Below, one piece after another: positions 45,783 through 64,000 of a DNA stretch of 64,000 bases. How positions within the stretch are numbered: position 1 is the first letter of the stretch; every line of letters begins with the position of its first letter. The translations under genes and the position numbers were made by a program. The notes below the pieces were generated by a model that was given only the letters and a program-made list of their open reading frames with translations, ran no database searches and had not been told where the DNA came from. This stretch comes from a bacterium (GTDB lineage Bacteria; Desulfobacterota; DSWW01), in NCBI GenBank assembly GCA_040756235.1, contig JBFLZG010000122.1, positions 1-64,000 of the forward strand, in the 5' to 3' direction.

Positions 45783-45796
45783 TGTAGTATTTTTCG

Positions 45797-46010
45797 TCAT
45801 CCCGGCCCATGTGCGAAGCGTGTGTGAGCCGGGATCCAGAAGGGTGCACCAAGGCCAGCTGTGGTAACTGGGCGCAGGGACTGGATTCCGGCCTGCGCCG
45901 GAATGACGGAAAGCATGCGGCCGCGCCTCCGAGTCCTCCGGAATGAGTGGTCGCACGAGGGTCTGACCGGATTTATGACACACCCTCTTGCGACGGAATG
46001 ACAGAAGAGG
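45797..46010 (-). repeat. Composite repeat element family A, copy 2 (inverted relative to copy 1)
   Basis: gtcatcccggcccatgtgcgaagcgtgtgtgagccgggatcc...ggattccggcctgcgccggaatgac... It lies directly after narI, and its reverse complement matches 168-395. Confidence 0.75.
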
Positions 46011-48354: not shown

Positions 48355-48565
48355 GTCGGTCATCCCGGCCCCGCCGCGTAGCGCGTGCGAGCCGGGATCC
48401 AGAAGTCTGCACAAGGGAACGGAGGTGTCATCACGCGGAGCAGGGACTGGACCCCGGCCTGCGCCGGGGTGACGGAACTGAGGAAACCGCGGCGGTCCGC
48501 TGCCCGGTCCTCCCGAATGGCGGTTTCGAGCTGGATTTCGCGTTGCGTCCCTGATGGGCCGACTT
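48355..48565 (-). repeat. Composite repeat element family A, copy 3 (diverged)
   Basis: gtcatcccggccccgccgcgtagcgcgtgcgagccgggatccagaag...gactggaccccggcctgcgccggggtgac. It sits between the sod stop and the IS4 left end. Confidence 0.6.
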
Positions 48566-48585
48566 GTGGGTAAAGGGCAGGCCTA

Positions 48586-50997
48586 GCTAGGCCTGCCCGT
48601 TCCCCACATCTAGGTACTGGACAAAATTCTCCACGCTGTGTATTCTCGCGGCATGGAACCTCAGAACCAAATCAAGCGGGCCTTGTGCAGCCCTGATGGG
48701 CTCGGGCAGGTCCGCCGGCTGCTTGGCGGGCGTGAGAGGCTGAACCGAACACAAGTGGCCGATCGGCTCTGTGAGCGATTCGGTTTCTTTGATCCCGGGG
48801 GGAGCAAGCAGCGCAGCGGATGCCTGAAGGCCCTGCGAGAGATGGAGCGGCAGGGGCAATTCACGCTGCCTGCGCCCCAATGGCAGCCTGGCCCGAAGAG
48901 TCCGAGGCGCCTTTCGAGACCGGTGCCCGCACCGCAGGACGTTCCCGAGGATGCCGGAAGGATCGGGCAATTGAGTCTGGTTCGGGTCGAAACCCAAGCA
49001 CAGATGCGGCTTTGGAACGAGATGATGATCCGGGAACATCCGCGAGGAGCCGGACCGCTGGTCGGACGCCAACTGCGTTACCTGGTGAGCTCCGAGCACG
49101 GCTGGCTCGGAGCGATCGGGTTCGGGGCGGCCGCTCTGCAGCTTCAAGCCCGAGACCGGTGGATCGGTTGGGACGCTCAGACCCGCAGGGCTCATCTCCA
49201 CCAAGTCGTATGCCTGAGCCGACTGCTGATCCGCACCGATGGGAAATGTCGGAATCTGGCCTCGCGCGTGCTCGGGATGTCTCTTCGAGCCCTTCCCGGA
49301 GACTTTCAGAGCCGGTACGGCTACCGCCCGCTGCTCGTGGAAAGCTTTGTGGACGGTCTTGCCGGCACTTGCTATCGGGCGGCCAACTGGGTATGGGTGG
49401 GTCGGACGCAGGGCCGGGGCCGTCAGGACCGGTTCACCCGCAGGGCAGAGACGATCAAAGACATTTACCTTTACGCCCTGGACAAGGATTTTCGTAGCCG
49501 CCTGGGGCTGCCGGAACCTCTGGGGATGCGGGTTTTGGGACCGGCCGACGGGGCCGATGCCGACGGCTGGGCGGAGCAGGAGTTTGGCGACGCTCCCTTG
49601 GGGGATAAGCGGCTCAGCCGCAGGCTGGTGGAGGTAGCCCGGCAGAAAGCAGAGAAACCCGACCACGCCTTTTGCAGCGTGGTGGGAGGAGAGTGGCCCA
49701 AAGTGAAGGCTTATTACCGCTTGATCGACCGGCCGGACGACTCGGCCGTGACGATGGCCAACATCCTGGCTCCGCACCGCGAACGGACGATGGAGCGGAT
49801 GCAGGGGCAAGAGGTGGTGCTTTGCATTCAAGACGGCACCGATCTGGATTACTCCAGCCTGGACCAATGTGAAGGGCTGGGGGTCATCGGCACGAATCAG
49901 ACGGGCGCCCAGAGCCGGGGGCTGCACCTTCACTCGACCCTGGCTGTAACCACCGAGGGGCTCCCCCTGGGAATCGTGCGTGCTCAGTGTACGGCTCCTG
50001 AACCCAAATCCGAGGATCGCAAGCCTTCCGGCGCGACAGCGAAGAAGACCTTCTGCTGGATCGAAGGTTTGCGCGACTCCATGGAGTTGGCCGGGAGAAT
50101 GCCGCACACCCGATTGGTTTGTGTCATGGATCGGGAAGCGGATTTCTTCGAGCTCTTCGATGCGCATCAGGGCAATCCCTGCGTGGACTTGCTGGTTCGA
50201 GCCAAACACGACCGCCGGACGCCGGCAGGCCTCAACCTATTCGATACGGTCTGGGAGAGCCCAGTTCAGAGCCGCCTGAGCATCCAGGTCCCGCGACAGA
50301 GCGCCAGAGCCAAGAAGAGCAAACAGAAGGCCAGGACCAAACGGCCCGCGCGAACCGCGGAGCTGGCCCTGCGCTATACGCAGGTGCAACTGTCGCCCAC
50401 GCCCTCCTGCAAACAAGCTCGGCCGATTACGGTCTGGGTCGTCCATGTGGTTGAAGAGAATCCCCCAGAAGAGGCCGGACCCGTCGAGTGGTATTTGATC
50501 ACCACCGTCGACCTCAAGTCGCCAGAGGATGCGATCCGGTGCGTGAGATGGTACTGCCTCCGCTGGCGCATCGAAGACTGGCATCGCGTCCTCAAATCCG
50601 GCTGCCGCATTGAAGAGATCGGCCACCACAGCGGGGACCGTCTCCAGAGGGCCATCGCAATCAATCTGGTCATCGCCTGGCGGGTTATGCTCATGACCCT
50701 GCTCGGCCGAGAGACCCCGGAGCTGCCCGCTGACGTCCTCTTCTCGGATTTGGAAGTCCAGGTCCTCCAAGCCTATGCGAAAAAAAGACGACTGAGCGTT
50801 CCCGCACTTCTCGGCGACGCGGTCCGGCTGGTGGCGAGGATCGGCGGCTACCTCGCCCGCGCTTCCGATCCGCCTCCCGGCCATCAACTCATGTGGCAAG
50901 GGTACACACAGTTGCACCTCATGTGCGAAGGGTTCGCGCTCAGAGATGACCGCGGATCTTCCCCATGAAGAACTTACGGGTAATGGGCAGGGCTAGC
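48586..50997 (+). mobile_element. IS4-family insertion sequence (~2.4 kb) with ~20-bp imperfect terminal inverted repeats
   Basis: IRL is gctaggcctgcccgttcccc at 48586-48605. IRR is ggtaatgggcagggctagc at 50979-50997, whose reverse complement is gctagccctgcccattacc. A single long transposase ORF fills the interior. Confidence 0.7.
48638..50968 (+). CDS. IS4-family DDE transposase (Tn5/IS50-like, 776 aa as called; ATG at 48653 more likely)
   Basis: WYCLRWRIEDWHRVLKSGCRIEE is the IS4 Y-(2)-R-(3)-E-(6)-K signature. DDE residues fall in the CIQDGTDLDY and VMDREADF regions. Confidence 0.8.
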   Translation: MYSRGMEPQNQIKRALCSPDGLGQVRRLLGGRERLNRTQVADRLCERFGFFDPGGSKQRSGCLKALREMERQGQFTLPAPQWQPGPKSPRRLSRPVPAPQDVPEDAGRIGQLSLVRVETQAQMRLWNEMMIREHPRGAGPLVGRQLRYLVSSEHGWLGAIGFGAAALQLQARDRWIGWDAQTRRAHLHQVVCLSRLLIRTDGKCRNLASRVLGMSLRALPGDFQSRYGYRPLLVESFVDGLAGTCYRAANWVWVGRTQGRGRQDRFTRRAETIKDIYLYALDKDFRSRLGLPEPLGMRVLGPADGADADGWAEQEFGDAPLGDKRLSRRLVEVARQKAEKPDHAFCSVVGGEWPKVKAYYRLIDRPDDSAVTMANILAPHRERTMERMQGQEVVLCIQDGTDLDYSSLDQCEGLGVIGTNQTGAQSRGLHLHSTLAVTTEGLPLGIVRAQCTAPEPKSEDRKPSGATAKKTFCWIEGLRDSMELAGRMPHTRLVCVMDREADFFELFDAHQGNPCVDLLVRAKHDRRTPAGLNLFDTVWESPVQSRLSIQVPRQSARAKKSKQKARTKRPARTAELALRYTQVQLSPTPSCKQARPITVWVVHVVEENPPEEAGPVEWYLITTVDLKSPEDAIRCVRWYCLRWRIEDWHRVLKSGCRIEEIGHHSGDRLQRAIAINLVIAWRVMLMTLLGRETPELPADVLFSDLEVQVLQAYAKKRRLSVPALLGDAVRLVARIGGYLARASDPPPGHQLMWQGYTQLHLMCEGFALRDDRGSSP

Positions 50998-51399: not shown

Positions 51400-51508
51400 C
51401 CTCCTCAACTTAGCAAGAGGGAGAATCCCCACATCCCCCCAGATGGATCAAAACCCAGGAGTCGAACCGGGCCGGAGCGAATATCGTCACCGACGAAGAG
51501 CTTCGCGG

Positions 51509-51760
51509 CTGGACCGGATGAAGGACCTGGCCTTGAAGAGCATCGCCTCGCACGTTTACCGCGGGATCCTGATCGGCCAGGCACAAGTCAGGGTGCAGCA
51601 GACGATCGACAATATCGACGCGCACGGCCGTTGCGTCGTCACGTTCGACGAGATCGAGAAGGGCTATCCAGCGCTTACAGTGGCTACCAGAGGGACCCAT
51701 GCGAAGCCCGGCATCCAGGCGGATGCACTCTTCATTCAGACATCCGTTCTCCACGATATG
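51509..51760 (+). pseudogene. Degraded partial copy of the downstream AAA+ ATPase gene (Walker-A segment deleted, frameshifted)
   Basis: ORF 51335..51853 encodes DRMKDLALKSIASHVYRGILIGQAQVRVQQTIDNIDAHGRCVVTFDEIEKGYPALTVATRG. This parallels DRMKDFSLKSIASHMYRGILVLGPAGTGKT...GQAEAKAQQTVDIIDAQGRCVVMFDEIEKGLSSAYSGYQG of the intact gene at about 53190-53520. Confidence 0.7.
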
Positions 51761-52469
51761 GCGGACCCGTCTTGCGAATTCGGACGCAGCGCCCATGCGC
51801 CTGGGAAAAACAATCATGTCCCGAAGAATCGAGGCGGAAACCTTCGCAGGTAGTCCCGTAGCCATTTCCGTATAATTTCCAAGTGCACTCCTTGATCCCG
51901 AAGACCGCCACCAGCTTCGCAGTTTCCACCAGCTCCCGCACTCTGGCCAGAAAGAGATCTGCACTCAGCCCATGCATGGCCGTGTGACCGAATGTCAGAC
52001 GGTAGGTCAGGATCAGCACAACCACGACTTCTCCGTTCCTGGCGGCCCGGTCTCCGCACCCTTCGGTTGGTTGAACATGGGCGTGCTGTAGCTGCTCATG
52101 CCTTTTCCGGCGACACTACTCATAGTGAAGGTCCCGCCGGAGACGTCTTCCGGCTTGAGGGTGCCGAATCTTGCCTTTTCAGCCACCACCTTCACATTTT
52201 TGGACACCTGCAGGAGCGACTTCTGGTTCGCTACCTTTATAACCAGCACAATGAGACCTTTCTTCCCCACCGCGACGGCAACTCCGTTGATGTCCTGCCA
52301 AACTGACTCAAGTCCGCCCCCGGTCGAACCTTTGTTTGGGCTTCCCACCTGGACCCTGCTCTTCCCTTGCCGTATCCCTGTGGGCGGCAAGGGAAGAGCG
52401 TTCCCTACCCTCCTTCCCGAGCTCACACCTGCCAGTCCAGCAATTCGCCACCCAAGCTCCGGAGGCGCC

Positions 52470-53969
52470 ATGAACGTCCCGAAGAGGATCAAGGTCCTGC
52501 ACTATCTCAACGCCGGCTACCCGGCCCTGTGGGTCAAGACGCAGGAGCCGGAACGGGCCGAAGCGAATATCCTCGCTGAGATCAGGCAGTGGGACGACCA
52601 CCGAAAAACCCGGACCGCGGTCTACCGATGGGACTGCCTGCGCGGGCTCGAGGGCGTTCACCCGGACAGGGAAGAACGGCAGATGATCCAGGACCCGGCA
52701 GAGCTCGTGACGCATCTGGCCGAAATGCCCGGGCCGGCGGTCGCATTCCTCGAGAACTTCCACCGGTTCATCGAGGGGGCTGAAACCGTCCAGGCCCTCC
52801 AGAACGCGAGACAGGCTCTCGCCGCAGACGGCGTGACCCTGATCGCGGTCTCGCCGATCGTGACCATCCCGACCGAGCTCTCGAAGCTCTTCAAGGTCGT
52901 TTCTTTCGAGCTTCCAACCCGGGAGGAACTGAAAGAGGTCTTCGTCGAGATCGCCGCGGCCGCAAATCTTGGGGAACAGGCACCTGAACTCTTGGACCAG
53001 CTTGCCGAGGCGGCTGTGGGCCTGACGCGCTTCGAGGCGGAGAACGCAGCCGCGCTCTGTTCCGTAGTCTCCTCCGGCAAGTTCTCCCCGGAGATCGTCG
53101 CGCACATGAAGGCGGACATGATCCGGCAGTCCTCCACCCTCGAGATCGGCGTCTTCGAGGAGACCTTCGAGGAGCTTCGCGGCGTTGACCGGATGAAGGA
53201 TTTTTCACTCAAGAGCATCGCCTCGCACATGTACCGCGGGATCCTGGTCCTGGGTCCCGCAGGGACCGGGAAGACCCACTTTGCCAAGGCCCTGGGGAAC
53301 GCCGTCAGGCTTCCCACGATCATCGCGGACGTGAACCGGGTCATGGCGGCCGGACAGGCCCTCGTGGGGCAGGCCGAGGCCAAGGCGCAGCAGACGGTCG
53401 ACATCATCGACGCCCAGGGGCGCTGTGTGGTCATGTTCGACGAAATCGAGAAGGGACTATCGAGCGCTTACAGCGGTTACCAGGGGGATGGGGGCGCGAA
53501 GGCCGGGGTGGGGTCGATACTTCTGCGCTGGATGTCGGACCGCCCCCAAGGGACCGCGTATGTCGTCGCCACCTGCAACGATCTCTCTCAGCTTCCGCCG
53601 GAGTGGATGCGCGCGGAGCGCTGGGACGCGATCTTCTTCGTCGATCTTCCAGACGAAGAGACCCGCAGCGCGATCCTCGGGATCTACAGCGCGAAATTTG
53701 AGGTTGACCCGGAGACGATTCCCGCCTCCCAGCTTACCGACTGGACCGGCGCCGAGATCAAGACCCTCTGCAGGGTGGCGAAGATGCTCGGGACGACTCT
53801 GGAAGAGGCCTCCCAGTTCGTGGTCCCCGTCTGCCGTACTGCCAGGGAGAAAATCCAGTCCCTTCGCGAGTGGGCCCAGGGCAGGGCGGTTCCGGCACAC
53901 AGAAGGGAGCAGGGCAGCGCGAGACTTCAAGAGAGCGCGTCCGTGAGAAGGATCGTCTGCGGGAACTGA
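52470..53969 (+). CDS. AAA+ ATPase (classical AAA clade, Ycf46-like architecture: ~270-aa N-domain plus AAA module), 499 aa
   Basis: ATG 52470 is aa 125 of ORF 52098..53969 and is preceded by GGAGG. Walker A is LGPAGTGKTHFAKAL and Walker B VVMFDEIEK. Sensor-1 and second region of homology are in VVATCNDLSQLPPEWMRAERWDAIFFVDLP. The C-terminal helical lid is GAEIKTLCRVA. Confidence 0.8.
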   Translation: MNVPKRIKVLHYLNAGYPALWVKTQEPERAEANILAEIRQWDDHRKTRTAVYRWDCLRGLEGVHPDREERQMIQDPAELVTHLAEMPGPAVAFLENFHRFIEGAETVQALQNARQALAADGVTLIAVSPIVTIPTELSKLFKVVSFELPTREELKEVFVEIAAAANLGEQAPELLDQLAEAAVGLTRFEAENAAALCSVVSSGKFSPEIVAHMKADMIRQSSTLEIGVFEETFEELRGVDRMKDFSLKSIASHMYRGILVLGPAGTGKTHFAKALGNAVRLPTIIADVNRVMAAGQALVGQAEAKAQQTVDIIDAQGRCVVMFDEIEKGLSSAYSGYQGDGGAKAGVGSILLRWMSDRPQGTAYVVATCNDLSQLPPEWMRAERWDAIFFVDLPDEETRSAILGIYSAKFEVDPETIPASQLTDWTGAEIKTLCRVAKMLGTTLEEASQFVVPVCRTAREKIQSLREWAQGRAVPAHRREQGSARLQESASVRRIVCGN

Positions 53970-54016
53970 CACCAGCAGACCGGCCCGACAGCCTCTGGGC
54001 AGAAGGAGACGAGACC

Positions 54017-54448
54017 ATGAGCCATGTGGCAATCATCGAGATCGAGATCACGGACCTGGCGGCACTCACGGCCGCATGCAAGCGCCTGGGGTTCTCCTTC
54101 CAAGAGAACCAGAAGACTTATGAGTGGTACGGCCGCTGGGAAGGGGACTATCCCCTGCCCGAAGGGTTCTCGCAAGAAGATCTGGGCAAATGCGACCACG
54201 CGATCCGCGTGCCCGGCGCCGGCTACGAGGTGGGGGTCGTGAAGGCGAGGAAGAAGTCCGGGTACCAGCTCCTCTGGGACTTCTGGAGCCAGGGGGGGCT
54301 CAGCGAAGAGCTCGGCCCGAAGGCCGAGAAGCTCGTCCAGGCCTACGGCGTGGAGAAGGCCAAACGGGAGGCCAGAAAACAGGGGTTCTCGGTCTACGAG
54401 ACGACCCGGGAAGACGGAACCGTGAGACTCACCCTTACCAGGAGATAA
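54017..54448 (+). CDS. DUF1257 domain protein (Ycf35-like), 143 aa
   Basis: MSHVAIIEIEITDLAALTAACKRLGF...YEWYGRW matches the DUF1257 N-terminal pattern. The gene begins 48 nt after the AAA gene. Family assignment is from recollection of Pfam PF06868. Confidence 0.6.
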   Translation: MSHVAIIEIEITDLAALTAACKRLGFSFQENQKTYEWYGRWEGDYPLPEGFSQEDLGKCDHAIRVPGAGYEVGVVKARKKSGYQLLWDFWSQGGLSEELGPKAEKLVQAYGVEKAKREARKQGFSVYETTREDGTVRLTLTRR

Positions 54449-54453
54449 CGCCG

Positions 54454-54648
54454 ATGAGCCAGACCATCCAGATCACGTTCAACCCGGACGGGACCACGGA
54501 AGTGAAGACGACCGGATTCCGGGGAAAATCGTGCATGAAGGCGACCGAGTTCCTGAAGAAGGCCCTGGGGAGCGTCACCAAGACCGGGAAGACCCCCGAG
54601 TACTTTCAGGGCGCGGCAGAACAAACCTCGAAGGCTCGCGGCGAGTGA
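54454..54648 (+). CDS. DUF2997 domain protein, 64 aa
   Basis: MSQTIQITFNPDGTTEVKTTGFRGKSCMKATEFLKKALG fits the small DUF2997 family (…I.I..dG...ve..Gf.G..C...T..l..aLG). It starts 6 nt after DUF1257. Family assignment is from recollection of Pfam PF11211. Confidence 0.6.
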   Translation: MSQTIQITFNPDGTTEVKTTGFRGKSCMKATEFLKKALGSVTKTGKTPEYFQGAAEQTSKARGE

Positions 54649-54674
54649 CCAGAACCGTAAGCGGAGGCCTGCCC

Positions 54675-54836
54675 ATGGAAACCATCGAGATTGAGCTCAC
54701 TACCGACGCCGTCTGGGCGGAGTGGTGGACCCCCGAGATCGCCCCCGTGCTCTGCGCCCTCTGCGGCAAGTGCCCGGGCTGGGAAAGCACCGAAAAGCCC
54801 CTGGAGTGCGTGAACGGGAACCCGTGGTGCGGCTGA
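54675..54836 (+). CDS. Small Cys-rich protein, 53 aa (CxxC...C...C, possible zinc ribbon)
   Basis: METIEIELTTDAVWAEWWTPEIAPVLCALCGKCPGWESTEKPLECVNGNPWCG. It lies 27 nt after DUF2997 in the same orientation. Confidence 0.4.
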   Translation: METIEIELTTDAVWAEWWTPEIAPVLCALCGKCPGWESTEKPLECVNGNPWCG

Positions 54837-54938
54837 CGGATCCACACAAGTCCGCCGTTGCCCTCTGCCCCCTGCCGTCCGGAGGCAGAGGGCAACTCCC
54901 TCGAAGCGAACCTTCCCAACGCTGGAGGAAAGATTCCC

Positions 54939-55856
54939 ATGGAGAACGGAAGCATCTATCACGACGGCGTGGTCCTGATTCTCGAGACGAGCTGCTGGGG
55001 GGCAAGGAAAAAGCTCCCCCAGGACAGAATCAACGTCTCGGCGGACCCGAAGTTCGTCTCCGGCACCAAGCGCCTCGTCGACCACGAGAAGTATCTCAAG
55101 CCCATCCGCCGGAACCAGCAGCAGGCTTTCGAGCGGATCCGGGACCGGTGGGCCGTGCCCGGTTTTCCCTTGACCGGGGCAAGCTTCATCCCCAAGGCCA
55201 ATATCGAGACCGTGGATTCGATTCTCCAGGAGCACCTCCGCGCTCACGAGGAGCTGGTGCGTGAGTTCCTGCCCCTTTACCCCCGGATGAAGGAGGAGGC
55301 GCGGGCCCAGCTCGAGCCGGACGGTCTCTTCGACGAGGAGGAGTACCCCAAGGACGTGCTCTCCAGGTTCAGCTTCACCTGGAAGTACGTGATCCTCGAG
55401 GCCCCGGATGCGGGAGCGAACGTCATGACCGCGCCCATGCTCGAGCGGGAGAAGGAGAAGATCGGGCTCATGATCGAGGAGTTCAGAGCGAACGCCGTCG
55501 CGATCCTCAGGAAGGAGTTCGCGCGAACGGTGGCGGGTCTTGCCGAGTGTTTGAAGAGCGGCAACAAACGCCGGATCAGGCAGGAGTCTCTGGAGAGCTT
55601 GAACGAGTGGATAGAGCGCTTCGAGCGGGTAAACATCAACAACGACCGAGAGCTCGCCGGGATCGTGGAGACCATGCGCTCCCTCGTCGTGGGGACCGAC
55701 GCAAAGGAGCTCCGGAACAACGACCTCTTCCGGAGGACGATCTCGAACCAGATGGCCGAAATCTCGGTGACCCTCGCGAGTCTCGCCGAAGAAGTCCCCA
55801 AAAGACGTATCGTCCCCGTGAACCCCGACTGCATGAACGCCTCGCAGGCAGGATAG
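54939..55856 (+). CDS. Hypothetical protein, 305 aa (mixed alpha/beta N-terminus, helical acidic C-terminal half)
   Basis: ATG at aa 28 of ORF 54858..55856. No family recognised from sequence alone. Confidence 0.5.
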   Translation: MENGSIYHDGVVLILETSCWGARKKLPQDRINVSADPKFVSGTKRLVDHEKYLKPIRRNQQQAFERIRDRWAVPGFPLTGASFIPKANIETVDSILQEHLRAHEELVREFLPLYPRMKEEARAQLEPDGLFDEEEYPKDVLSRFSFTWKYVILEAPDAGANVMTAPMLEREKEKIGLMIEEFRANAVAILRKEFARTVAGLAECLKSGNKRRIRQESLESLNEWIERFERVNINNDRELAGIVETMRSLVVGTDAKELRNNDLFRRTISNQMAEISVTLASLAEEVPKRRIVPVNPDCMNASQAG

Positions 55857-55941: not shown

Positions 55942-56733
55942 ATGATCGACCACATCAGCCCCTCCATGCTCGGGACCTGGCTCCGCTGCGGGGAGCAGTT
56001 CCGGCGCCGGTACATCGAGGACGAACGGATCCCGCCGGGGGTCTCGGCCCGCCGGGGGAGTGCGGTCCACAAGGTGGCCGAGCTCAACTACACCCACAAG
56101 AAGCTCACAGGTGAAGATATGCCGCTCGCCGATCTCAAAGACGCCTGCCGGGACGAGTACGTGCGCCTCATCCGGGACGAAGGCGTGTACTTTCCTCCGC
56201 AGCTGCTTCCGGAGAAAGCCGGGCTCCTCAACCGCTCGCTCGACGAGGCCCTGAAGGCGACCGCACTCTTCAGGAGCGAGATCGCGCCCCGAGTCACGCC
56301 ACTGGAAACCGAGCTTCCGGTGGAAGAGGACCTGGGCTTCGGTCTTCCGGTCGTAGGGATCCTCGATCTCGTAGAGCCCGAAGGGCGCCTGAGCGATCTC
56401 AAAGTCATGGACAGAAAAGGCCAGGAGTGGGCCGACCGCGAGCTCCAGCCCACCTTCTACTGCGCGCTCTGGCACGCAAAGACCGGCCAGTGGCCGGCCG
56501 CCTTCCGCTTCGACCTCATCGTCCCCAACAAGACCCCTGTCCACGTGGAGCTCACGACCCAGCGGACTCCGAAAGACCTCGAGGTCCTCGCCCGCTACGT
56601 CCGCAATTTTCTCAAGGACCTAGAAGCAGGGGTCTTCAGGCCCGCGGACCCGGGGCACTGGGTCTGCCGGCCGCTCTACTGCGGGTACTACATGACCTGC
56701 CCGTACACCACGGGCGGAAACGGAAACGCCTAA
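55942..56733 (+). CDS. PD-(D/E)XK nuclease, Cas4/RecB-like with 4-Cys Fe-S cluster
   Basis: N-terminal Cys (WLRCGEQF). Catalytic motifs are GILDLVEPEGRLSDLKV (D...E-x-K). The C-terminus has a Q/Y motif and the triad WVCRPLYCGYYMTCPY (C-x5-C-x5-C). Confidence 0.7.
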   Translation: MIDHISPSMLGTWLRCGEQFRRRYIEDERIPPGVSARRGSAVHKVAELNYTHKKLTGEDMPLADLKDACRDEYVRLIRDEGVYFPPQLLPEKAGLLNRSLDEALKATALFRSEIAPRVTPLETELPVEEDLGFGLPVVGILDLVEPEGRLSDLKVMDRKGQEWADRELQPTFYCALWHAKTGQWPAAFRFDLIVPNKTPVHVELTTQRTPKDLEVLARYVRNFLKDLEAGVFRPADPGHWVCRPLYCGYYMTCPYTTGGNGNA

Positions 56734-56769: not shown

Positions 56770-57807
56770 ATGGCAAGGAAGACTGTCAATGCACAGGAGC
56801 ACCCTCTCGCGCTGATCGATCCCGCGATCCTGGACCAGATCCGGGTCTTCTCCGGTCTCCCGGAGGAGAGGGCTCTCCCCGCCCCCGCGGCAGCGGTCCT
56901 GCCGGAAGCGTCCCACGAGGGGCTCCTTCGGACCCAGACCCGCTACACCACGGCGATCGCGGTCCAGAAGCCGCGCGCCATTTCGCGGGTCGTCTCCAAG
57001 GTGCTCGAAGAGGCCCGGCTTGCCGGCGAGAGCTTCTACTACTACTGGGAGGTGGAGGACCGGCAGAAGGGCCGCAAGGTCCCGGTCGAAGGCCCGTCGA
57101 TCGATCTCGCCATGAGCCTCGCCAGGAACTACGAGAACTGCGCGGTGGACGTGGATGTGACCGAGACCCCCACCCACTACAACTTCAAGGGGGTATTCAT
57201 CGATCTCCAGACCGGGTTCACCTACACCCGGCTCTTCCGGCAGAGAAAGAGCCAGAAGCTCTCCTCCCGGATGGACGGCGAGCGCCAGGAGGACATCGTC
57301 TTCCAGATCGGCCAGTCCAAGACCCAGAGAAACGCCATCACGCGCGCCATGCCGGGCTGGCTCGTGGAGAAGGCGATCGAGACCGCCAAGCAGGCCGTGC
57401 TTTCGGGGATCAGCCCGGAGACCATTCACCTGGCGCGCATCAAGGTCATCGAATTCTTCTCGAAGTACGGGGTCACCCAGGCCCAGATCGAGGCCGAACG
57501 CGGCCGACCCATCGACCGGTGGACCCCCAGAGACATCGTGGACCTGCGCGGCATGGCGACGGCCCTCAAGGAAGGAAGGGTTTCGGCGGCGGAAATCTTC
57601 CCGCCGGTGCAACCGGCCCCCGCGAGCGGCCCGCCCGAAAGTAATGACACGACCTCCGAGGGAGCTTCCAGCCCTACTTCCCCTTCGGGAGAAGAGGCTC
57701 TCCAGGAGCCCACCAAACCCTGCCCGAACTGGGAGGGGCAGCCCAAGCCGGTCGCTTACTGCAACACCATCTGCACCGACCGGGAAGGCTGCCCGGCATG
57801 GGATTGA
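56770..57807 (+). CDS. Hypothetical protein, 345 aa. Possible RecT/Redbeta-like single-strand annealing protein, low confidence
   Basis: The central region (ESFYYYWEVEDRQKGRKVPVEGPSIDLAMSLARNYENCAVDVDVTE...FQIGQSKTQRNAITRAMPGW) loosely resembles the RecT core. The tail is Ser/Pro-rich and ends C-x-N-x-C-x5-C. It sits directly downstream of the nuclease, as in phage exo-SSAP pairs. Confidence 0.35.
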   Translation: MARKTVNAQEHPLALIDPAILDQIRVFSGLPEERALPAPAAAVLPEASHEGLLRTQTRYTTAIAVQKPRAISRVVSKVLEEARLAGESFYYYWEVEDRQKGRKVPVEGPSIDLAMSLARNYENCAVDVDVTETPTHYNFKGVFIDLQTGFTYTRLFRQRKSQKLSSRMDGERQEDIVFQIGQSKTQRNAITRAMPGWLVEKAIETAKQAVLSGISPETIHLARIKVIEFFSKYGVTQAQIEAERGRPIDRWTPRDIVDLRGMATALKEGRVSAAEIFPPVQPAPASGPPESNDTTSEGASSPTSPSGEEALQEPTKPCPNWEGQPKPVAYCNTICTDREGCPAWD

Positions 57808-59314: not shown

Positions 59315-59983
59315 ATGGGACTGCTCACAAGAAGCCTTTTCTGCCAGGGCCTGAATGCTCTCGACACCCCTGAAGAATTCGAGGAGGTCCGGCCCGTCTT
59401 CGAGTTTCAGAGAAGGCGCCTCTCCGAAGACCCGGAAAAGAGAGCCAGCGCCAAGGATCTCTTCCCGTTCCGGCGGGTGCCGGCCCCGGTCAAGTTCGCG
59501 ATCCTTGCGGCCAAGGACCCTGCCCAGCTCAAGGCGCTCGAGCTCCTCTGGCAGGAGGCGTACACGGAACGGATTGGGGCGAAGAAGGGCGACCCGCGCG
59601 ATCCCCGAAATCTACAAGCCACCGGTATCGGGAAAGAACTCGACTTGGGAAGGGTGGACCTTTTCAAGCGGCTTTCCCGGGAAGTCGAAAAGCTTAAGAC
59701 CTTGAAGCAGTGTGCCGCCGCCCGCCGGCTCGTTGCAGCGCACCGCGAGGCGCTCTCGAGGAACGACCCGGACGTGGGTACGGAGGTGGAGGTCGAGGTC
59801 CTCGAGCTCGCCACCAACCTCCCCAGGGAGCTTGTGCGCCTCTTCACAGACCTTGCCGCACCGGAAGAGATACAGGGGTTCGTAAACCTTCTGTCCCGTA
59901 GAGACGCGGCCATTCGCGAGGAGATGAGAAAGGATGTCTGGGTATCGATTCACCCGGACAATTTCAACCACCAGCTGCCCTGA
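59315..59983 (+). CDS. Hypothetical protein, 222 aa
   Basis: Clean ORF with coding-like composition, mostly helical. No family recognised. Confidence 0.45.
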   Translation: MGLLTRSLFCQGLNALDTPEEFEEVRPVFEFQRRRLSEDPEKRASAKDLFPFRRVPAPVKFAILAAKDPAQLKALELLWQEAYTERIGAKKGDPRDPRNLQATGIGKELDLGRVDLFKRLSREVEKLKTLKQCAAARRLVAAHREALSRNDPDVGTEVEVEVLELATNLPRELVRLFTDLAAPEEIQGFVNLLSRRDAAIREEMRKDVWVSIHPDNFNHQLP

Positions 59984-60089
59984 TAGACCAAACGTGAGGT
60001 TTTCCTCACAGCAAAGCCCGCCGCCCGAATAACAGTGTCAGGAGACGATTCACCGTCCCCTCTCTAAAGTATCGGAAAGGAGCGCTCCC

Positions 60090-63053
60090 ATGGATGCGGC
60101 GGCAAAGGAGATCATGACTAAAGGCGGCTCGGCAGACTCACGTTTAAGGAAAGACTTGGACCTATCATCGCCAGAGCATTCCCTCTCCGGACCTGTGCCC
60201 GCGGGTCGCCCGGGCTTCGAGAACGTTGCCCCCCGGCCGGAGCCCGGGACGATCGCGATCCAGGGCTTCGTCGCACCGGCCAGATCGTTCAGCGGGGTCC
60301 GGGATCTGAGAACCCTCACGCTCGACAAACCCTCAGGAGAGATGACCCGCCCGGAAACAGCCGTCTTCCGGGTCGCCCGCTCAGCAATTCTCGACCCGGG
60401 CGGCGCAATCAAGGGGACCGACACCGCGAGGGCCCAAAGCCTCATCTGGGAAGCGGCGGAAATCCAGAGCCCGCCGGAGAGGCTGGCCTTCTTCCGCGAG
60501 AAGGGAATTAAGATTATCGCGGACTACTCGACAGCCGATTCCGGAAACCGCCATCTGCTCCTCATCGATCGGGAGCTCGAGATCGAGAGTGCGCCTTACG
60601 ACGGGAGAGGCATCGAGGGCACGCCGCAGGGAAAGGGCCACGCCGACTTTCTGAAGAGGGCGTCTCTTTCAAACGAATACGAGTCCGCGGTCACCGGATT
60701 CCACAGGGGCGACGGCAGCCGGGCGATCGCGCTTCGAAACTCGGATCTCACGCTGAGAGACCGTGCCCATTCGGAGCTTTTGGAGCGGGAGCGCGCGCCT
60801 CTGGTACTCGTCGCAGAGTCCCTGAACGGCCGCCCGGAAGACATTACCCTTGTCCACATAGCGGATCTCAAGGGCCGCACGCAGTACAGCACCTATGTGC
60901 ACCCCGAAAGATCCTTTCCCGTCCGGGACGAGGCCCGCGGGGGCTTTACCCCCGAATACCTCGGGAGACCCGGCTGGGACATCCTCGCCGCAGCACCTTC
61001 CAGAAACGAGATTCTGCCCGAGATCAAGGCATTTCTCGATTCCGGCTCAACGGTTCTGATCCCGACCCGAAGCGGCCCGGAAGCGAGCCTCATCCAGGCG
61101 GTCCGGCAGAGAGAGCACGCGCCAGCTGCGGTTCCCGAGTTCAGGAACACGCCCTTGGAGCGCGCGGCGAGCGAGTACGCCAGGGAAATGGTTCGGGCCC
61201 GGACCCGGGACACAGTTGTGGTGCTCGATCACCCGGAACGTCTAGGAAGCCTCACGGAAAACGCCCGCAGGCAGATACGGAACGCAGAATTTCTTTCCGT
61301 CCACGAGCGGGCCGCGGTTTACGGAGAGATCTATACAGAGATGCAAGCCCAGGCCCTGAGATCAGGCCCAAACCACGAACTGCTGAACTCCGGACCCGAA
61401 CGGCACGCGCTCCTCCCCTACCCGGAGCCCCAGACTGAGAAAGCACCGAGACCCCTTCACACGCTCCGCGTCTTCCAACGCCTCCCGGAGGCGGCAAACG
61501 GGCCGATCGACCTCGCCAGGTTCGGCGAGCAGTACCGGGAGACTCTGACTGCCAGAGGACACATGGATCACGACATGCTCCTCAACCTCACGCGATACGA
61601 GGCATGGTGGGAGAAGATCGTTCCCGAGACGGGGGTCGCCCTCGCGGACGGCTCCCTCCCACGGACCGCCCAGGCTGGGGACATCATCGTCGAGGTAGGC
61701 CAGGAAAAGAGCGCGAACCGGGCGTTCGTCGTGGACCGCCTGGGACGGCCAAGAGAGGTCGAGACCGTCCCCATAACCAAGGGGACCATACCCAATCTGA
61801 GCTACAACCCGACTGAAGGCGCCCCGAACTGGGTCGCCGCAGTGAGACCCCACCCCGAGCAGCCCGGCCTCCTCATGCGAACCCCGGAAGTCGTAACCCG
61901 CTCCGGCAACCGGGTTACGGCCGACGCATTCTTTCTGGATACCGCAGAAGGGGGGAGGTTTGCTTCTGCCGAGAAGATCCGGCCCGGACATATCCTGGAA
62001 TTCGGTGGGGACGAGCTTGCAGGCGGTGAAAGCTTCAAGAACCGCACCTACCGGCTCGTACTCGGGAATACCCAGGATCGACTCCTCGTGGCGGAGATCA
62101 GTAGAGACGAAGCCGCGAGCCCCCTCCAAGCCTTCGAGCACGTGAACCCGCGCCACGTCTTCGAGGCGTACCTGGTCTCGGCCGACGGCAGCCGGAGATA
62201 CCCCGGGCGCGAGAGCGAGCCGGAGAAAAGGATCCCGGATAGAATCCCCCCAAGCTTCCGGCCCACGGCGGAGGTCACCTTGGCCCTGGACCGGAAGGTC
62301 CACGTGAACGACAAGGCCGTGCTCGTCCTCATGGATACGGATAAGATCCTTGACCCCCACAACCAGATCGGCGGCGAGGCTCCGGAGAGACTCCGCATCC
62401 ATCGGGTACACGCGAGCGAAATCGCCGCAAGTTTGAAGACCGCACGCGAGCAAGGGGCCCCGGATTCCGCCCTCTCCTCCCTGCGGGCCCAGGCGCTCAA
62501 AGAGCGGGGTTACGTTGGAGAGATAGGCTTTGCCGTGACCAAGAACGCGGAAGTCGCGACCGTCCTACACGTGCCGGACGCAAGCCGGGTGAGGATCATC
62601 CAGACGGGGAAGGCTCTCGCCGAGGATAGAATCCCGAAGAATATCTCGGCCGAGGCCTCCAGGGACAACTTCCTCGCTTCCTTCTACTCGCTGGAAGAGA
62701 GGACGGCTCTGGGAGCCGGCCTCAACGCCATGGCACAGGCCGGCCGGGTCGCGGGAGCAGTGCGGGACCAGCGGGCCCAAGAACTATCCACCGTGCCCGA
62801 GGCACGCACCGCCGAGCCGCCTCCTCTCACCCGTCTCGAGAGGACCGTCCTCGAGTACAAGAGCCTCCCCGAAACACGCGCCGGCGCCATGGCCCCGGAG
62901 GCCGCCAAGCTCATCCTCGATCAAGTCCGGGACGCAAAGGCCGAGGAAGCTCGGTCCGTCGTGAACAAAGAGATCCAGTGGCGAGAGGACAGACAGGCCG
63001 AACGCGTCCAGGACAAACAGATCTCAAGGCGGCAGTGGGAGCTGGGGCTATAG
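60090..63053 (+). CDS. Large hypothetical protein, 987 aa (orphan, no recognisable domains)
   Basis: A single uninterrupted ORF with an AAAGGAG RBS upstream. Composition is balanced and non-repetitive, with no TM segments. I cannot assign a family. Confidence 0.5.
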   Translation: MDAAAKEIMTKGGSADSRLRKDLDLSSPEHSLSGPVPAGRPGFENVAPRPEPGTIAIQGFVAPARSFSGVRDLRTLTLDKPSGEMTRPETAVFRVARSAILDPGGAIKGTDTARAQSLIWEAAEIQSPPERLAFFREKGIKIIADYSTADSGNRHLLLIDRELEIESAPYDGRGIEGTPQGKGHADFLKRASLSNEYESAVTGFHRGDGSRAIALRNSDLTLRDRAHSELLERERAPLVLVAESLNGRPEDITLVHIADLKGRTQYSTYVHPERSFPVRDEARGGFTPEYLGRPGWDILAAAPSRNEILPEIKAFLDSGSTVLIPTRSGPEASLIQAVRQREHAPAAVPEFRNTPLERAASEYAREMVRARTRDTVVVLDHPERLGSLTENARRQIRNAEFLSVHERAAVYGEIYTEMQAQALRSGPNHELLNSGPERHALLPYPEPQTEKAPRPLHTLRVFQRLPEAANGPIDLARFGEQYRETLTARGHMDHDMLLNLTRYEAWWEKIVPETGVALADGSLPRTAQAGDIIVEVGQEKSANRAFVVDRLGRPREVETVPITKGTIPNLSYNPTEGAPNWVAAVRPHPEQPGLLMRTPEVVTRSGNRVTADAFFLDTAEGGRFASAEKIRPGHILEFGGDELAGGESFKNRTYRLVLGNTQDRLLVAEISRDEAASPLQAFEHVNPRHVFEAYLVSADGSRRYPGRESEPEKRIPDRIPPSFRPTAEVTLALDRKVHVNDKAVLVLMDTDKILDPHNQIGGEAPERLRIHRVHASEIAASLKTAREQGAPDSALSSLRAQALKERGYVGEIGFAVTKNAEVATVLHVPDASRVRIIQTGKALAEDRIPKNISAEASRDNFLASFYSLEERTALGAGLNAMAQAGRVAGAVRDQRAQELSTVPEARTAEPPPLTRLERTVLEYKSLPETRAGAMAPEAAKLILDQVRDAKAEEARSVVNKEIQWREDRQAERVQDKQISRRQWELGL

Positions 63054-63126: not shown

Positions 63127-64000
63127 CTAGTGTGGTGTCCCGATGACGGCTTTACAATGAGCGATCTTTTCCAGAATGGCGTCCACTTTTTTCGTCCAGA
63201 CGAAGGGCTTGGGGTTCTCGTTGTTAACGCGGATGAAATCCTCGATCGCCGCGACCGGTTCGGGAACGCTGCGGAAGACGCCCCGACGGATGCGCTTTCG
63301 CGTGATCTCCCCGAACCACCTCTCCACCAGGTTCAGCCACGACGAGCTGGTCGGCGTAAAATGAAGATGATACCGAGGGTGTTTCTCCAGCCACGCTTTG
63401 ACGTTGGGGTGGTTGTGCGTGCCGTAGTTGTCGAGGATCATGTGAATGTCCAAACCCGCAGGCACGGAGCGGTCAATCTGCCGCAGGAACTTGCGAAACT
63501 CGATGTTCCGATGCCGAGGGTAGCAGGAGCCGATGACTTTGCCTTCGAGCACGTTGAGCGCCGCGAACAGACAGGTGGTGCCGTTGCGCTTGTAGTCGTG
63601 GGTCATGGTGCCGCAACGACCCTTCTTCATCGGCAGTCCCGGCTGCGTGCGGTCCAGTGCCTGCACCTGCGATTTCTCGTCCACGCAGAGCACGACGGCC
63701 TTGTCGGGCGGATTGAGATAGACGCCCACCACGTCGGTCAGCTTCTCAACGAAGCGCTTGTCCTTGGAGAGTTTGAAGGTTTCCACCCGATGCGGCTGCA
63801 GACCGTGCGCGTCCCAGATTCGCTGCACCGTGGATTTGCTCACGCTCTGGGCTTTGGCCATCGAACGGACGGACCATTGCGTCGCGTCCGGCGGGGTGGT
63901 CTGCAACGTCGCTTCCACGATCATCTTCACGCGGTCCAACGGCAAAGCCCGCGGGCTCGGGCCGTGGGGGGCATCTTCGGACAGACCTGTCGGCCCATCC
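63127..64000 (-). CDS. IS630-family (Tc1/mariner-type) DDE transposase. 5' end of gene runs off the window
   Basis: HNHPNVKAWLEKHPRYHLHFTPTSSSWLNLVERWFGEITRKRIRRGVF is the IS630 C-terminal DDE region (D...D...E with NLVE). The reading frame stays open to position 64000. Confidence 0.8.
   Translation of the reverse strand, partial: DGPTGLSEDAPHGPSPRALPLDRVKMIVEATLQTTPPDATQWSVRSMAKAQSVSKSTVQRIWDAHGLQPHRVETFKLSKDKRFVEKLTDVVGVYLNPPDKAVVLCVDEKSQVQALDRTQPGLPMKKGRCGTMTHDYKRNGTTCLFAALNVLEGKVIGSCYPRHRNIEFRKFLRQIDRSVPAGLDIHMILDNYGTHNHPNVKAWLEKHPRYHLHFTPTSSSWLNLVERWFGEITRKRIRRGVFRSVPEPVAAIEDFIRVNNENPKPFVWTKKVDAILEKIAHCKAVIGTPH

Follow-up and report, generated by a model that had tools for sequence, protein, structure and literature searches.

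A Ycf46-type AAA ATPase and its partner genes in a cassette carried by phages, prophage-like loci and plasmids

The four-gene core and its conservation

The window analyzed here is a 64,000-nucleotide stretch of contig JBFLZG010000122.1 (GenBank assembly GCA_040756235.1) from a bacterium of the Desulfobacterota lineage DSWW01. Between positions 52470 and 54836 it carries four intact, co-directional genes that encode an ATPase of the AAA family resembling the plastid protein Ycf46, members of the DUF1257 and DUF2997 families, and a Cys-rich mini-protein. Relatives of these genes occur side by side on phages, prophage-like loci and plasmids, and we propose that the four genes are the core of a mobile-element cassette for a protein remodeling motor with dedicated cofactors. 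An earlier note on this DNA, made from the sequence alone, had described them as a tightly spaced operon; its coordinates were exact, and its spacers of 48, 6 and 27 nucleotides (nt) depart from our 47, 5 and 26 nt by counting convention only. The core genes and the features that adjoin them are the following:

52358..52399, no strand assigned: 15-bp perfect hairpin, arms GCTCTTCCCTTGCCG / CGGCAAGGGAAGAGC, 12-nt loop, ~70 nt 5' of the ATPase start
52470..53969, + strand: AAA ATPase gene, 499 amino acids (aa), from the list of open reading frames (ORFs)
54017..54448, + strand: DUF1257 gene, 143 aa, from the ORF list and PF06868
54454..54648, + strand: DUF2997 gene, 64 aa, PF11211 and phrog_23133
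54675..54836, + strand: Cys-rich mini-protein gene, 53 aa, new family
54857..54896, no strand assigned: 16-bp hairpin inside the 102-nt spacer between the mini-protein and DUF3150 genes
54939..55856, + strand: DUF3150 gene, 305 aa, PF11348 at 36 bits, beyond the coordinates of the earlier note

The three family assignments made from the sequence held up in searches with Pfam hidden Markov models (HMMs), which returned AAA, DUF1257 and DUF2997. A GGAGG/AGGAG ribosome-binding site lies 6–9 nt 5' of all four start codons, and no terminator-like site was found between the four genes on the + strand; both observations bear out a single operon-like unit. No sigma-70-like promoter was found in the 51–59 kb region, and Rfam and tRNA scans of the whole window returned no matches. 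Relative to the closest relatives, the ratio of nonsynonymous to synonymous substitution rates (dN/dS) is 0.10–0.17 for all four genes at a dS of ~0.8–1.4, demonstrating purifying selection on each of them. As this includes the mini-protein gene (dN/dS 0.13), its 53-codon ORF is a real gene. A longer ATPase ORF starting at 52098 was considered and rejected, as the relatives share the ATG at the same site as the 499-residue ORF and the sequence upstream is a conserved non-coding hairpin.

Three related loci (L010, L011 and L175) keep this hairpin at 52358..52399, and in L011 and L175 substitutions in the two arms compensate each other. The hairpin forms the 5' edge of the unit common to the closest relatives, nucleotide homology starting there; an operator, a structured RNA and a recombination boundary are all conceivable functions. 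At the opposite end, nucleotide homology with L010 and L011 stops at 54837, just 5' of the second hairpin.

We queried the gene neighborhood in 170 loci with a related ATPase, drawn from genomes, IMG/VR viral contigs, isolated phages and a megaplasmid. Relatives detected with the ATPase alignment numbered at least 509 among species-representative genomes and at least 275 in IMG/VR. Of each set, 80 loci were fetched, and HMMs derived from the window and from the first relatives served to score every ORF of the 170 loci. Ninety-eight loci had enough flank, the limits being 3 kb or more on the upstream side of the ATPase and 4 kb or more on the downstream side. The partner genes were found beside the ATPase as follows:

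DUF1257: 143/170 loci; 87/98 loci with enough flank
DUF2997: 147/170 loci; 91/98 loci with enough flank
DUF3150: 130/170 loci; 82/98 loci with enough flank

The linkage of the AAA, DUF1257 and DUF2997 genes is thus conserved across the 170 loci, and the association of the genes is far beyond chance and near-obligatory. Two gene orders dominate, DUF1257-DUF2997-AAA-DUF3150-E87, in which E87 is a second small protein family described below, and AAA-DUF1257-DUF2997-Cys-DUF3150, the type found in the window. The nearest relatives of the window copy (87% amino-acid identity in the ATPase, ~78% nucleotide identity) have only the stretch 52354–54837 in common with it. Because these relatives share just the 5' hairpin and the four genes, the four-gene delineation is a real unit in the lineage of the window; elsewhere the module is larger than had been proposed, DUF3150 being near-constant and the Cys-rich protein alternating with E87.

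The ATPase and its partner proteins

The ATPase matches the Pfam AAA family PF00004 (E 4.6e-18, 66.4 bits), and the motifs on which it had been placed in the classical clade are legible in the translation: Walker A GPAGTGKT, Walker B FDEIEK (within VVMFDEIEK) and ATCN...RAERWD. Invariant across 25 relatives are G265, G267 and K268, D324 and E325, the sensor-1 residue N370 and the arginine-finger residues R381 and R384 of the second region of homology; all features of the classical clade, namely Walker A, Walker B, the sensor-1 Asn and the two arginines, are present. A profile built from the 25 relatives matches Cdc48/p97/VAT D2 domains at E 1e-60 or better, the AAA domain being nearest to Cdc48/p97 D2, and the ATPase matches phrog_8638 over its full length (E 3e-62).

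The AlphaFold model of the ATPase (predicted local distance difference test score 85) depicts the N-terminal ~225 residues as a second alpha-beta-alpha domain with a helical lid. Read from the sequence, TQEPER stands at the P-loop position of this domain and ENFH at the Walker B position, and many of its residues are invariant among the 25 relatives. Because the predicted fold is AAA-type with the P-loop and Walker B lost, residues ~1–225 are a degenerate D1-like AAA domain rather than a classical substrate-recognition domain. At the pore-loop-1 position, alignments place A-L-V-G in the window ATPase and S-L-V-G in the family consensus, both aliphatic.

The label 'Ycf46-like', first given from the sequence alone, holds at the level of architecture. 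In a BLASTP comparison with a genuine plastid Ycf46 (P0271, UniRef 'AAA domain-containing protein ycf46' from the plastid of the diatom Lithodesmium), residues 13–431 of the window ATPase align to residues 11–434 at 28% identity (E 2e-52), an end-to-end correspondence that includes the N-terminal half. The Ycf46 references retrieved for this comparison are real database entries. Plastid and cyanobacterial Ycf46 (CHL00195-type) shares with the window protein a length of ~500 aa, the co-linear N-terminal half and AAA domain, and the aliphatic pore-loop position; unlike Ycf46, genes of the window type sit on mobile elements in an operon with DUF1257, DUF2997 and DUF3150. The phenotypes reported for Ycf46 itself are physiological only (CO2 use, circadian timing, stress checkpoint) and come without a mechanism. 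Type II classical AAA proteins such as Cdc48/p97/VAT, NVL/Rix7 and Pex1/6 differ in several respects: the first AAA module of the window ATPase is without P-loop and Walker B, the double-psi-barrel N-domain is missing, pore loop 1 is aliphatic, and the known adaptors (UBX, Ufd1-Npl4) are absent, the partners here being DUF families.

The DUF1257 protein matches PF06868 at 36.2 bits (cut-off 22.2) over model positions 25–103 and belongs to a family with more than 5,600 homolog clusters. Its sequence starts MSHVAIIE, of which MSH is invariant in 66 relatives; an N-terminal MSH has also been reported for Ycf35 (PMC13060386). M1-S2-H3, E10 and D13 are invariant or nearly so among phage, bacterial and plastid members. 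No structural analog of the predicted DUF1257 model was found, peptidase-like neighbors included, and profile searches against PDB sequences returned nothing meaningful for DUF1257, for DUF3150, or for the phrog_3657 protein encoded downstream in the window. The DUF2997 protein spans its Pfam model entirely (PF11211, positions 1–47 of 47, 51.6 bits against a cut-off of 24.1, E 8.5e-14) and keeps the core G-F-x-G-x-x-C ... E-x-A-L-G with one conserved Cys. Both proteins match PHROG families. Among 115 related pairs, the DUF2997 start lies between −4 and +10 nt from the DUF1257 stop in 91, and 45 of these overlap by 4 nt, an arrangement by which the two genes are translationally coupled. Two apparent DUF1257-DUF2997 fusion ORFs look like frameshift or deletion artifacts of metagenome-assembled genomes (MAGs) and were set aside.

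The Cys-rich mini-protein has no match in Pfam, PHROG, NCBIfam or PADLOC. Its family comprises 37 cluster representatives of 49–94 aa in 1.84 billion proteins, matching to their own C-terminus, and homologs occupy the same position in 26 other loci. An N-P-W-C-G C-terminus is universal in the family, and the CxxCxxCP...C array is limited to the subgroup of the window copy. The attributes of a Fe-S ferredoxin were not found: neither Fer4 nor another Pfam family matches, and only the last Cys is conserved family-wide. E87 is a new family of ~87 aa that occurs in 87 loci (L168 14106–14366, L172 13547–13798, L001 6679–7029 and 84 further loci) and matches neither Pfam nor PHROG. It is usually encoded directly 3' of DUF3150 and never co-occurs with the Cys-rich mini-protein (27 loci). 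Homology among the small proteins was tested because all begin with an I-x-I-x-x-x-DG hairpin; with hhalign probabilities of 39%, 4% and 7% over ~20 columns, we do not claim homology of the mini-protein to DUF2997 or E87.

DUF3150 also occurs in a second setting. On the conjugative Burkholderia ambifaria plasmid pBMC401 (L176 7554–10816), a full-length DUF3150 gene (E 1e-46) lies between genes for a midasin/MoxR-like AAA protein and a VWA protein, and the trio is found 3' of PRTRC genes and 5' of type IV secretion genes. As DUF3150 thereby stands beside two different AAA proteins, we regard it as a protein that repeatedly accompanies AAA+ enzymes of mobile elements, as their partner or client. 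The likeness to MoxR/midasin AAA plus VWA chaperone pairs is restricted to this placement: their AAA belongs to another clade (helix-2-insert), the plasmid triad is without DUF1257 and DUF2997, and the window is without a VWA protein.

The tails of the ATPase (53940–53969, VRRIV) and of the DUF3150 protein (about 55800–55856, KRRIV) both carry a basic R-R-[IV] motif behind a disordered linker. Within the last 30 residues, 45% of the ATPases and 33% of the DUF3150 proteins contain 'RR[IV]', compared with 12% in the background. The common tail motif could be a shared docking motif, for which these frequencies are suggestive only.

Carriers, neighbors and the window locus

The earlier note had taken the DUF partners to be co-annotated mostly in cyanobacteria. 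We find instead that the trio typically belongs to phages, megaplasmids and prophage-like loci, the last mostly in Planctomycetota MAGs; carriage by mobile elements is directly observed. At least 275 IMG/VR contigs, with lengths reaching 379 kb, carry the cassette, and in a group of ~200-kb jumbo-phage contigs a GpA-type terminase lies ~5 kb from it. In Pseudomonas phage SM1 (Samunavirus), the genes for AAA, DUF1257, DUF2997 and E87 lie upstream of those for DnaB and PolA; DUF1257 matches were also obtained in 11 other Pseudomonas phage records, and Tunturiibacter phage Tunturi_3 possesses all five families. Manganitrophus plasmids carry the series RadC-x-AAA-DUF1257-DUF2997-DUF3150-E87, followed by ParB and PRTRC protein C. 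The loci from genome assemblies belong mostly to Planctomycetota MAGs, often with several copies per genome, and the hosts are non-photosynthetic.

Primase, DNA ligase, a Cas4-like PD-(D/E)XK nuclease, serine integrase, ParB-methyltransferases, RadC and further DUF proteins are recurrently encoded next to the cassette. The PD-(D/E)XK nuclease family lies within 10 kb in 16/170 loci and is therefore recurrent rather than constant. Prochlorococcus phage P-SSM7 has a DUF2997 gene and, behind it, a Ycf35/DUF1257 gene whose product starts MSH... (L171 2477–3029); the pair lies in the company of hli, psbA and ferredoxin genes, and the annotation of the 5 kb examined includes no ATPase.

A set of three genes accompanies some of the loci. 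The product of the first is small and ThiS/MoaD-like, with KIEGA followed by a variable tail at its end; that of the second combines an E2-like HPH-x5-LC motif, which is invariant, with a Cys array that is RING/B-box-like; and that of the third is a ThiF E1-like enzyme. The triad is found in L039 (13110–14417 and downstream), in L066, L047, L051, L070 and L088, and in others; judged by these motifs, it looks like a candidate ubiquitin-like conjugation system.

Within the window, the sequence upstream of the cassette is chromosomal, with narGHI, narK and sodB at 38.7–48.3 kb. It is followed by an IS4/Tn5-type transposase, a relic of a second ATPase, the cassette with DUF3150, a nuclease, a phrog_3657 protein, a DUF433/DUF5615 pair, two unassigned ORFs and an IS630-type transposase:

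48565–48608: 44-bp palindrome just upstream of the IS4/Tn5-type transposase
48638–50968: IS4/Tn5-type transposase, 776 aa, with an N-terminal DruA (DUF4338)-like domain (Pfam E 5e-34) and a weak Mom-family match
51432..51766, + strand: relic of a second ATPase copy (tblastn), residues 17–41 and 239–357 recognizable
55942..56733, + strand: PD-(D/E)XK (Cas4-like) nuclease, PF12705 at E 2e-20, phrog_69 exonuclease
56770..57807, + strand: phage-family protein of 345 aa, phrog_3657 at E 6e-39, no Pfam or PDB match
59315–63053: two ORFs of 222 and 987 aa with a good coding signature, matching neither Pfam nor PHROG, flanked by the toxin-antitoxin pair on one side and the IS630-type transposase on the other
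63127–63945: IS630-type transposase

The earlier note had placed the genes in an island flanked by insertion sequences (IS) beside a nuclease and a toxin-antitoxin pair, all of which were found: both transposases, the PD-(D/E)XK nuclease and, by Pfam, the DUF433/DUF5615 toxin-antitoxin pair near the cassette. PHROG families match four window proteins, namely the ATPase, DUF1257, DUF2997 and the 345-aa protein, the last of which completes the phage-like stretch. The ATPase relic sits between the IS4-type transposase and the intact cassette. It is 81–84% identical in nucleotides to 53168–53249 and 53367–53488; it has lost the Walker A segment and, between the recognized parts, about half of the protein, and its reading frame is interrupted. 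An intergenic repeat of ~120 bp occurs in three copies that are 75–77% identical (48359–48477, 45796–45911 and, on the reverse strand, 267–384) and is probably an element of the host genome of the repetitive extragenic palindromic type.

Among the closest relatives, one Thermodesulfobacteriota MAG contains the 2.5-kb unit twice at 91% nucleotide identity (L010 5445–7945 and L011 9945–12437), on contigs that both end less than 300 nt downstream of the unit. One copy adjoins lutABC/rhamnose genes and the other Lcl/PEP-CTERM genes. In a further metagenome, the 2.5-kb unit lies behind dnaJ-lon.

Proposed role and competing explanations

Taken together, these observations point to the four genes as the core of a mobile-element cassette for an element-encoded remodeling motor with dedicated cofactors, a reading to which we assign a probability of about one half. 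The Ycf46-family ATPase would most likely assemble into a two-tier hexamer, in which a nucleotide-free D1-like ring may serve as scaffold or docking platform and a Cdc48-D2-like ring would hydrolyze ATP. DUF1257 (Ycf35 family) and DUF2997, made in a fixed ratio from translationally coupled genes, would most likely form a heterodimeric cofactor of the motor, acting as adaptor, regulator or client. DUF3150 may be a further dedicated partner or client, as may one or the other of the two alternative mini-proteins; that of the window, with its Cys array and NPWCG end, is possibly metal-binding. We infer a physical complex with remodeling activity that the element would use for itself, in protein remodeling or extraction during an early replication or recombination phase. 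Establishment, host take-over and counter-defense are possible uses, and the set would not be a host anti-phage system. The window copy would lie in the IS-disrupted remnant of such an element, beside its decayed second ATPase copy.

Support for a functional link between the AAA protein and DUF1257 that is independent of the cassette comes from plastids. The window ATPase is co-linear with plastid Ycf46, and across 127 red-algal plastid genomes ycf35 and ycf46 tend to be retained or lost together (PMC5940233).

Three observations weigh against the motor reading. i) DUF1257 and DUF2997 are also found without an adjacent ATPase, in cyanobacteria and in cyanophage P-SSM7. ii) The closest relatives of the window copy are stand-alone 2.5-kb units without DUF3150 beside ordinary chromosomal genes, an arrangement equally compatible with a phage function and with a module that is domesticated or selfish. 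iii) At pore loop 1, Leu/Ile-Val-Gly replaces the aromatic residue of processive unfoldases, and because this loop is aliphatic the motor may not thread substrates.

The alternative that survives best is an anti-phage defense, superinfection exclusion or addiction module, in which the AAA protein would sense or process an invader signal, the small proteins would be effectors or inhibitors, and prophages or plasmids would protect their host. The IS-flanked position of the window copy beside a nuclease and a toxin-antitoxin pair fits this proposal, as do the compact four-gene unit of the close relatives, of which one MAG has two copies and which occupies three distinct chromosomal sites, and the BREX or OLD/Eco57I-type genes that adjoin some related loci. 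The genomic island SGI1, moreover, employs a SpoVK/Ycf46/Vps4-type AAA ATPase as an antitoxin (PMC10954446). Within the cassette, the ATPase alone matches PADLOC models, weakly (IetA, TRIP13 and others) and without system membership. The match cited in favor of defense is to IetA, the AAA component of a two-gene defense system; however, it is weak (38 bits, E 3e-10) and confined to the generic AAA core. With IetAS and the SGI1 sgiAT system the cassette shares a classical-clade AAA ATPase as one component, IetA being the best PADLOC match, but the subtilisin-like protease (IetS or SgiT) is absent here, and no peptidase domain was found in any neighboring ORF scanned.

PADLOC-DB v2 lacks models for the mini-protein and for DUF1257, DUF2997 and DUF3150, and the partners are without a recognizable effector domain (nuclease, protease, NADase or membrane protein). 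The gene order is conserved, often beside replication and recombination genes, in very divergent phages, jumbo-phage contigs and isolated phages included. Among the PADLOC matches listed for 115 large neighboring ORFs of 13 loci (25 of 303 families), Cas4-like nucleases account for three ORFs, E1-E2-like ThiF proteins for two, and BREX for one locus; this rough summary gives no clear defense enrichment among the matches listed. The defense reading that the earlier note had drawn from the neighborhood is thus not supported, the partners being without PADLOC models and the cassette being phage-carried beside replication and recombination genes. From the PADLOC profile of cassette and neighbors, the gene set belongs to the element and not to a host defense island. 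Defense borne by the element itself is possible; on balance, we consider the defense or addiction reading unlikely.

A good deal less probable is a segregase coupled to a ubiquitin-like tag, in which the Cdc48-like ATPase, with its partners, would recognize proteins that a system of the element or of the host has tagged and would extract them. The triad described above flanks the cassette in 14–16 genome loci, nearly all of them Planctomycetota MAGs; PRTRC (ThiF-related) genes lie near the cassette or DUF3150 on the Manganitrophus plasmid and on pBMC401, RadC/JAB genes lie upstream in two loci, and the ATPase is nearest to Cdc48/p97. Against these points, the triad was found neither among the window ORFs scanned, which are part of the ORFs of the window, nor within 10 kb in the 80 viral contigs, and no combination of E1, E2 and ubiquitin-like proteins was detected among the scanned ORFs. 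The E2/RING assignment derives from a motif and weak PDB matches (best E 0.003), and the small proteins of the cassette itself are without a recognizable beta-grasp fold or GG end.

We hold equally low expectations for a redox- or metal-linked stress chaperone, an auxiliary metabolic module that would be the phage version of cyanobacterial Ycf46 and Ycf35-DUF2997-Fed7, with the mini-protein in the part of the Fe-S ferredoxin. Fed7 is a 4Fe-4S ferredoxin. Cyanobacteria retain a DUF2997-ycf35-fed7 cluster (PMC4284462), which resembles the window in its adjacent DUF1257 and DUF2997 genes and small Cys-rich third protein and speaks for this proposal, as does a stress-induced ycf46 operon in Synechococcus (bioRxiv 10.1101/2025.07.21.665879). 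The hli, psbA and ferredoxin genes near the pair in P-SSM7 and the CxxCxxCP...C...C array of the window mini-protein point the same way. However, the gene order of the cyanobacterial cluster is reversed, an ATPase gene is not reported there, and the third gene, which in cyanobacteria is Fed7, encodes in the window a 53-aa protein with no detectable ferredoxin homology. More than half of the mini-protein family is without four of the five cysteines, most cassettes have E87, which is without the Cys motif, in place of the Cys-rich protein, the hosts are non-photosynthetic, and the neighbors are genes of DNA metabolism rather than redox metabolism.

An AAA+ protease of the HslUV or ClpXP kind, with DUF1257 as a new peptidase that would use its N-terminal Ser-His as HslV uses its N-terminal Thr, is barely tenable: the residues M1-S2-H3, E10 and D13 are suitably conserved and the pairing of an unfoldase with a small partner resembles the HslUV logic, but at 120–143 aa DUF1257 is too small, it gives no Pfam or PDB peptidase signal, its model has no peptidase-like neighbor, and the Tunturi_3 protein starts MSK rather than MSH.

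The motor with dedicated cofactors thus remains our preferred reading. The literature searched, in which five papers mention DUF1257 or DUF2997 and one mentions DUF3150, assigns no function to DUF1257, DUF2997 or DUF3150 and does not address their combination, in keeping with the earlier statement that none had been described; what is new is a proposed AAA+ remodeling motor with an unprecedented, conserved partner set. At a bolder and distinctly speculative level, Ycf46, Ycf35/DUF1257 and DUF2997 might be one remodeling complex from plastids and cyanobacteria to phages and plasmids. Its mobile-element version would be extended by DUF3150 and a mini-protein and, in some Planctomycetota loci, coupled to the triad of E1, E2-like and ubiquitin-like proteins as a prokaryotic or viral counterpart of Cdc48-ubiquitin that dismantles host or defense proteins; we would not expect this wider proposal to hold in full.

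The cassette is widespread yet uncharacterized, and its definition as a five-gene module with two alternative layouts turns an annotation gap into a testable hypothesis, by way of complex formation, epistatic mutants and co-purification. Because the module is present in culturable phages (SM1 and Tunturi_3), phage genetics is feasible. On mobile elements, DUF3150 emerges as a repeated companion of two AAA+ types that are unrelated to each other. Together with DUF2997, the operon physically links homologs of ycf46 and ycf35, which are among the last functionally orphan conserved genes of plastids and cyanobacteria, and the layout of the cassette suggests that these chloroplast and cyanobacterial orphans act together.

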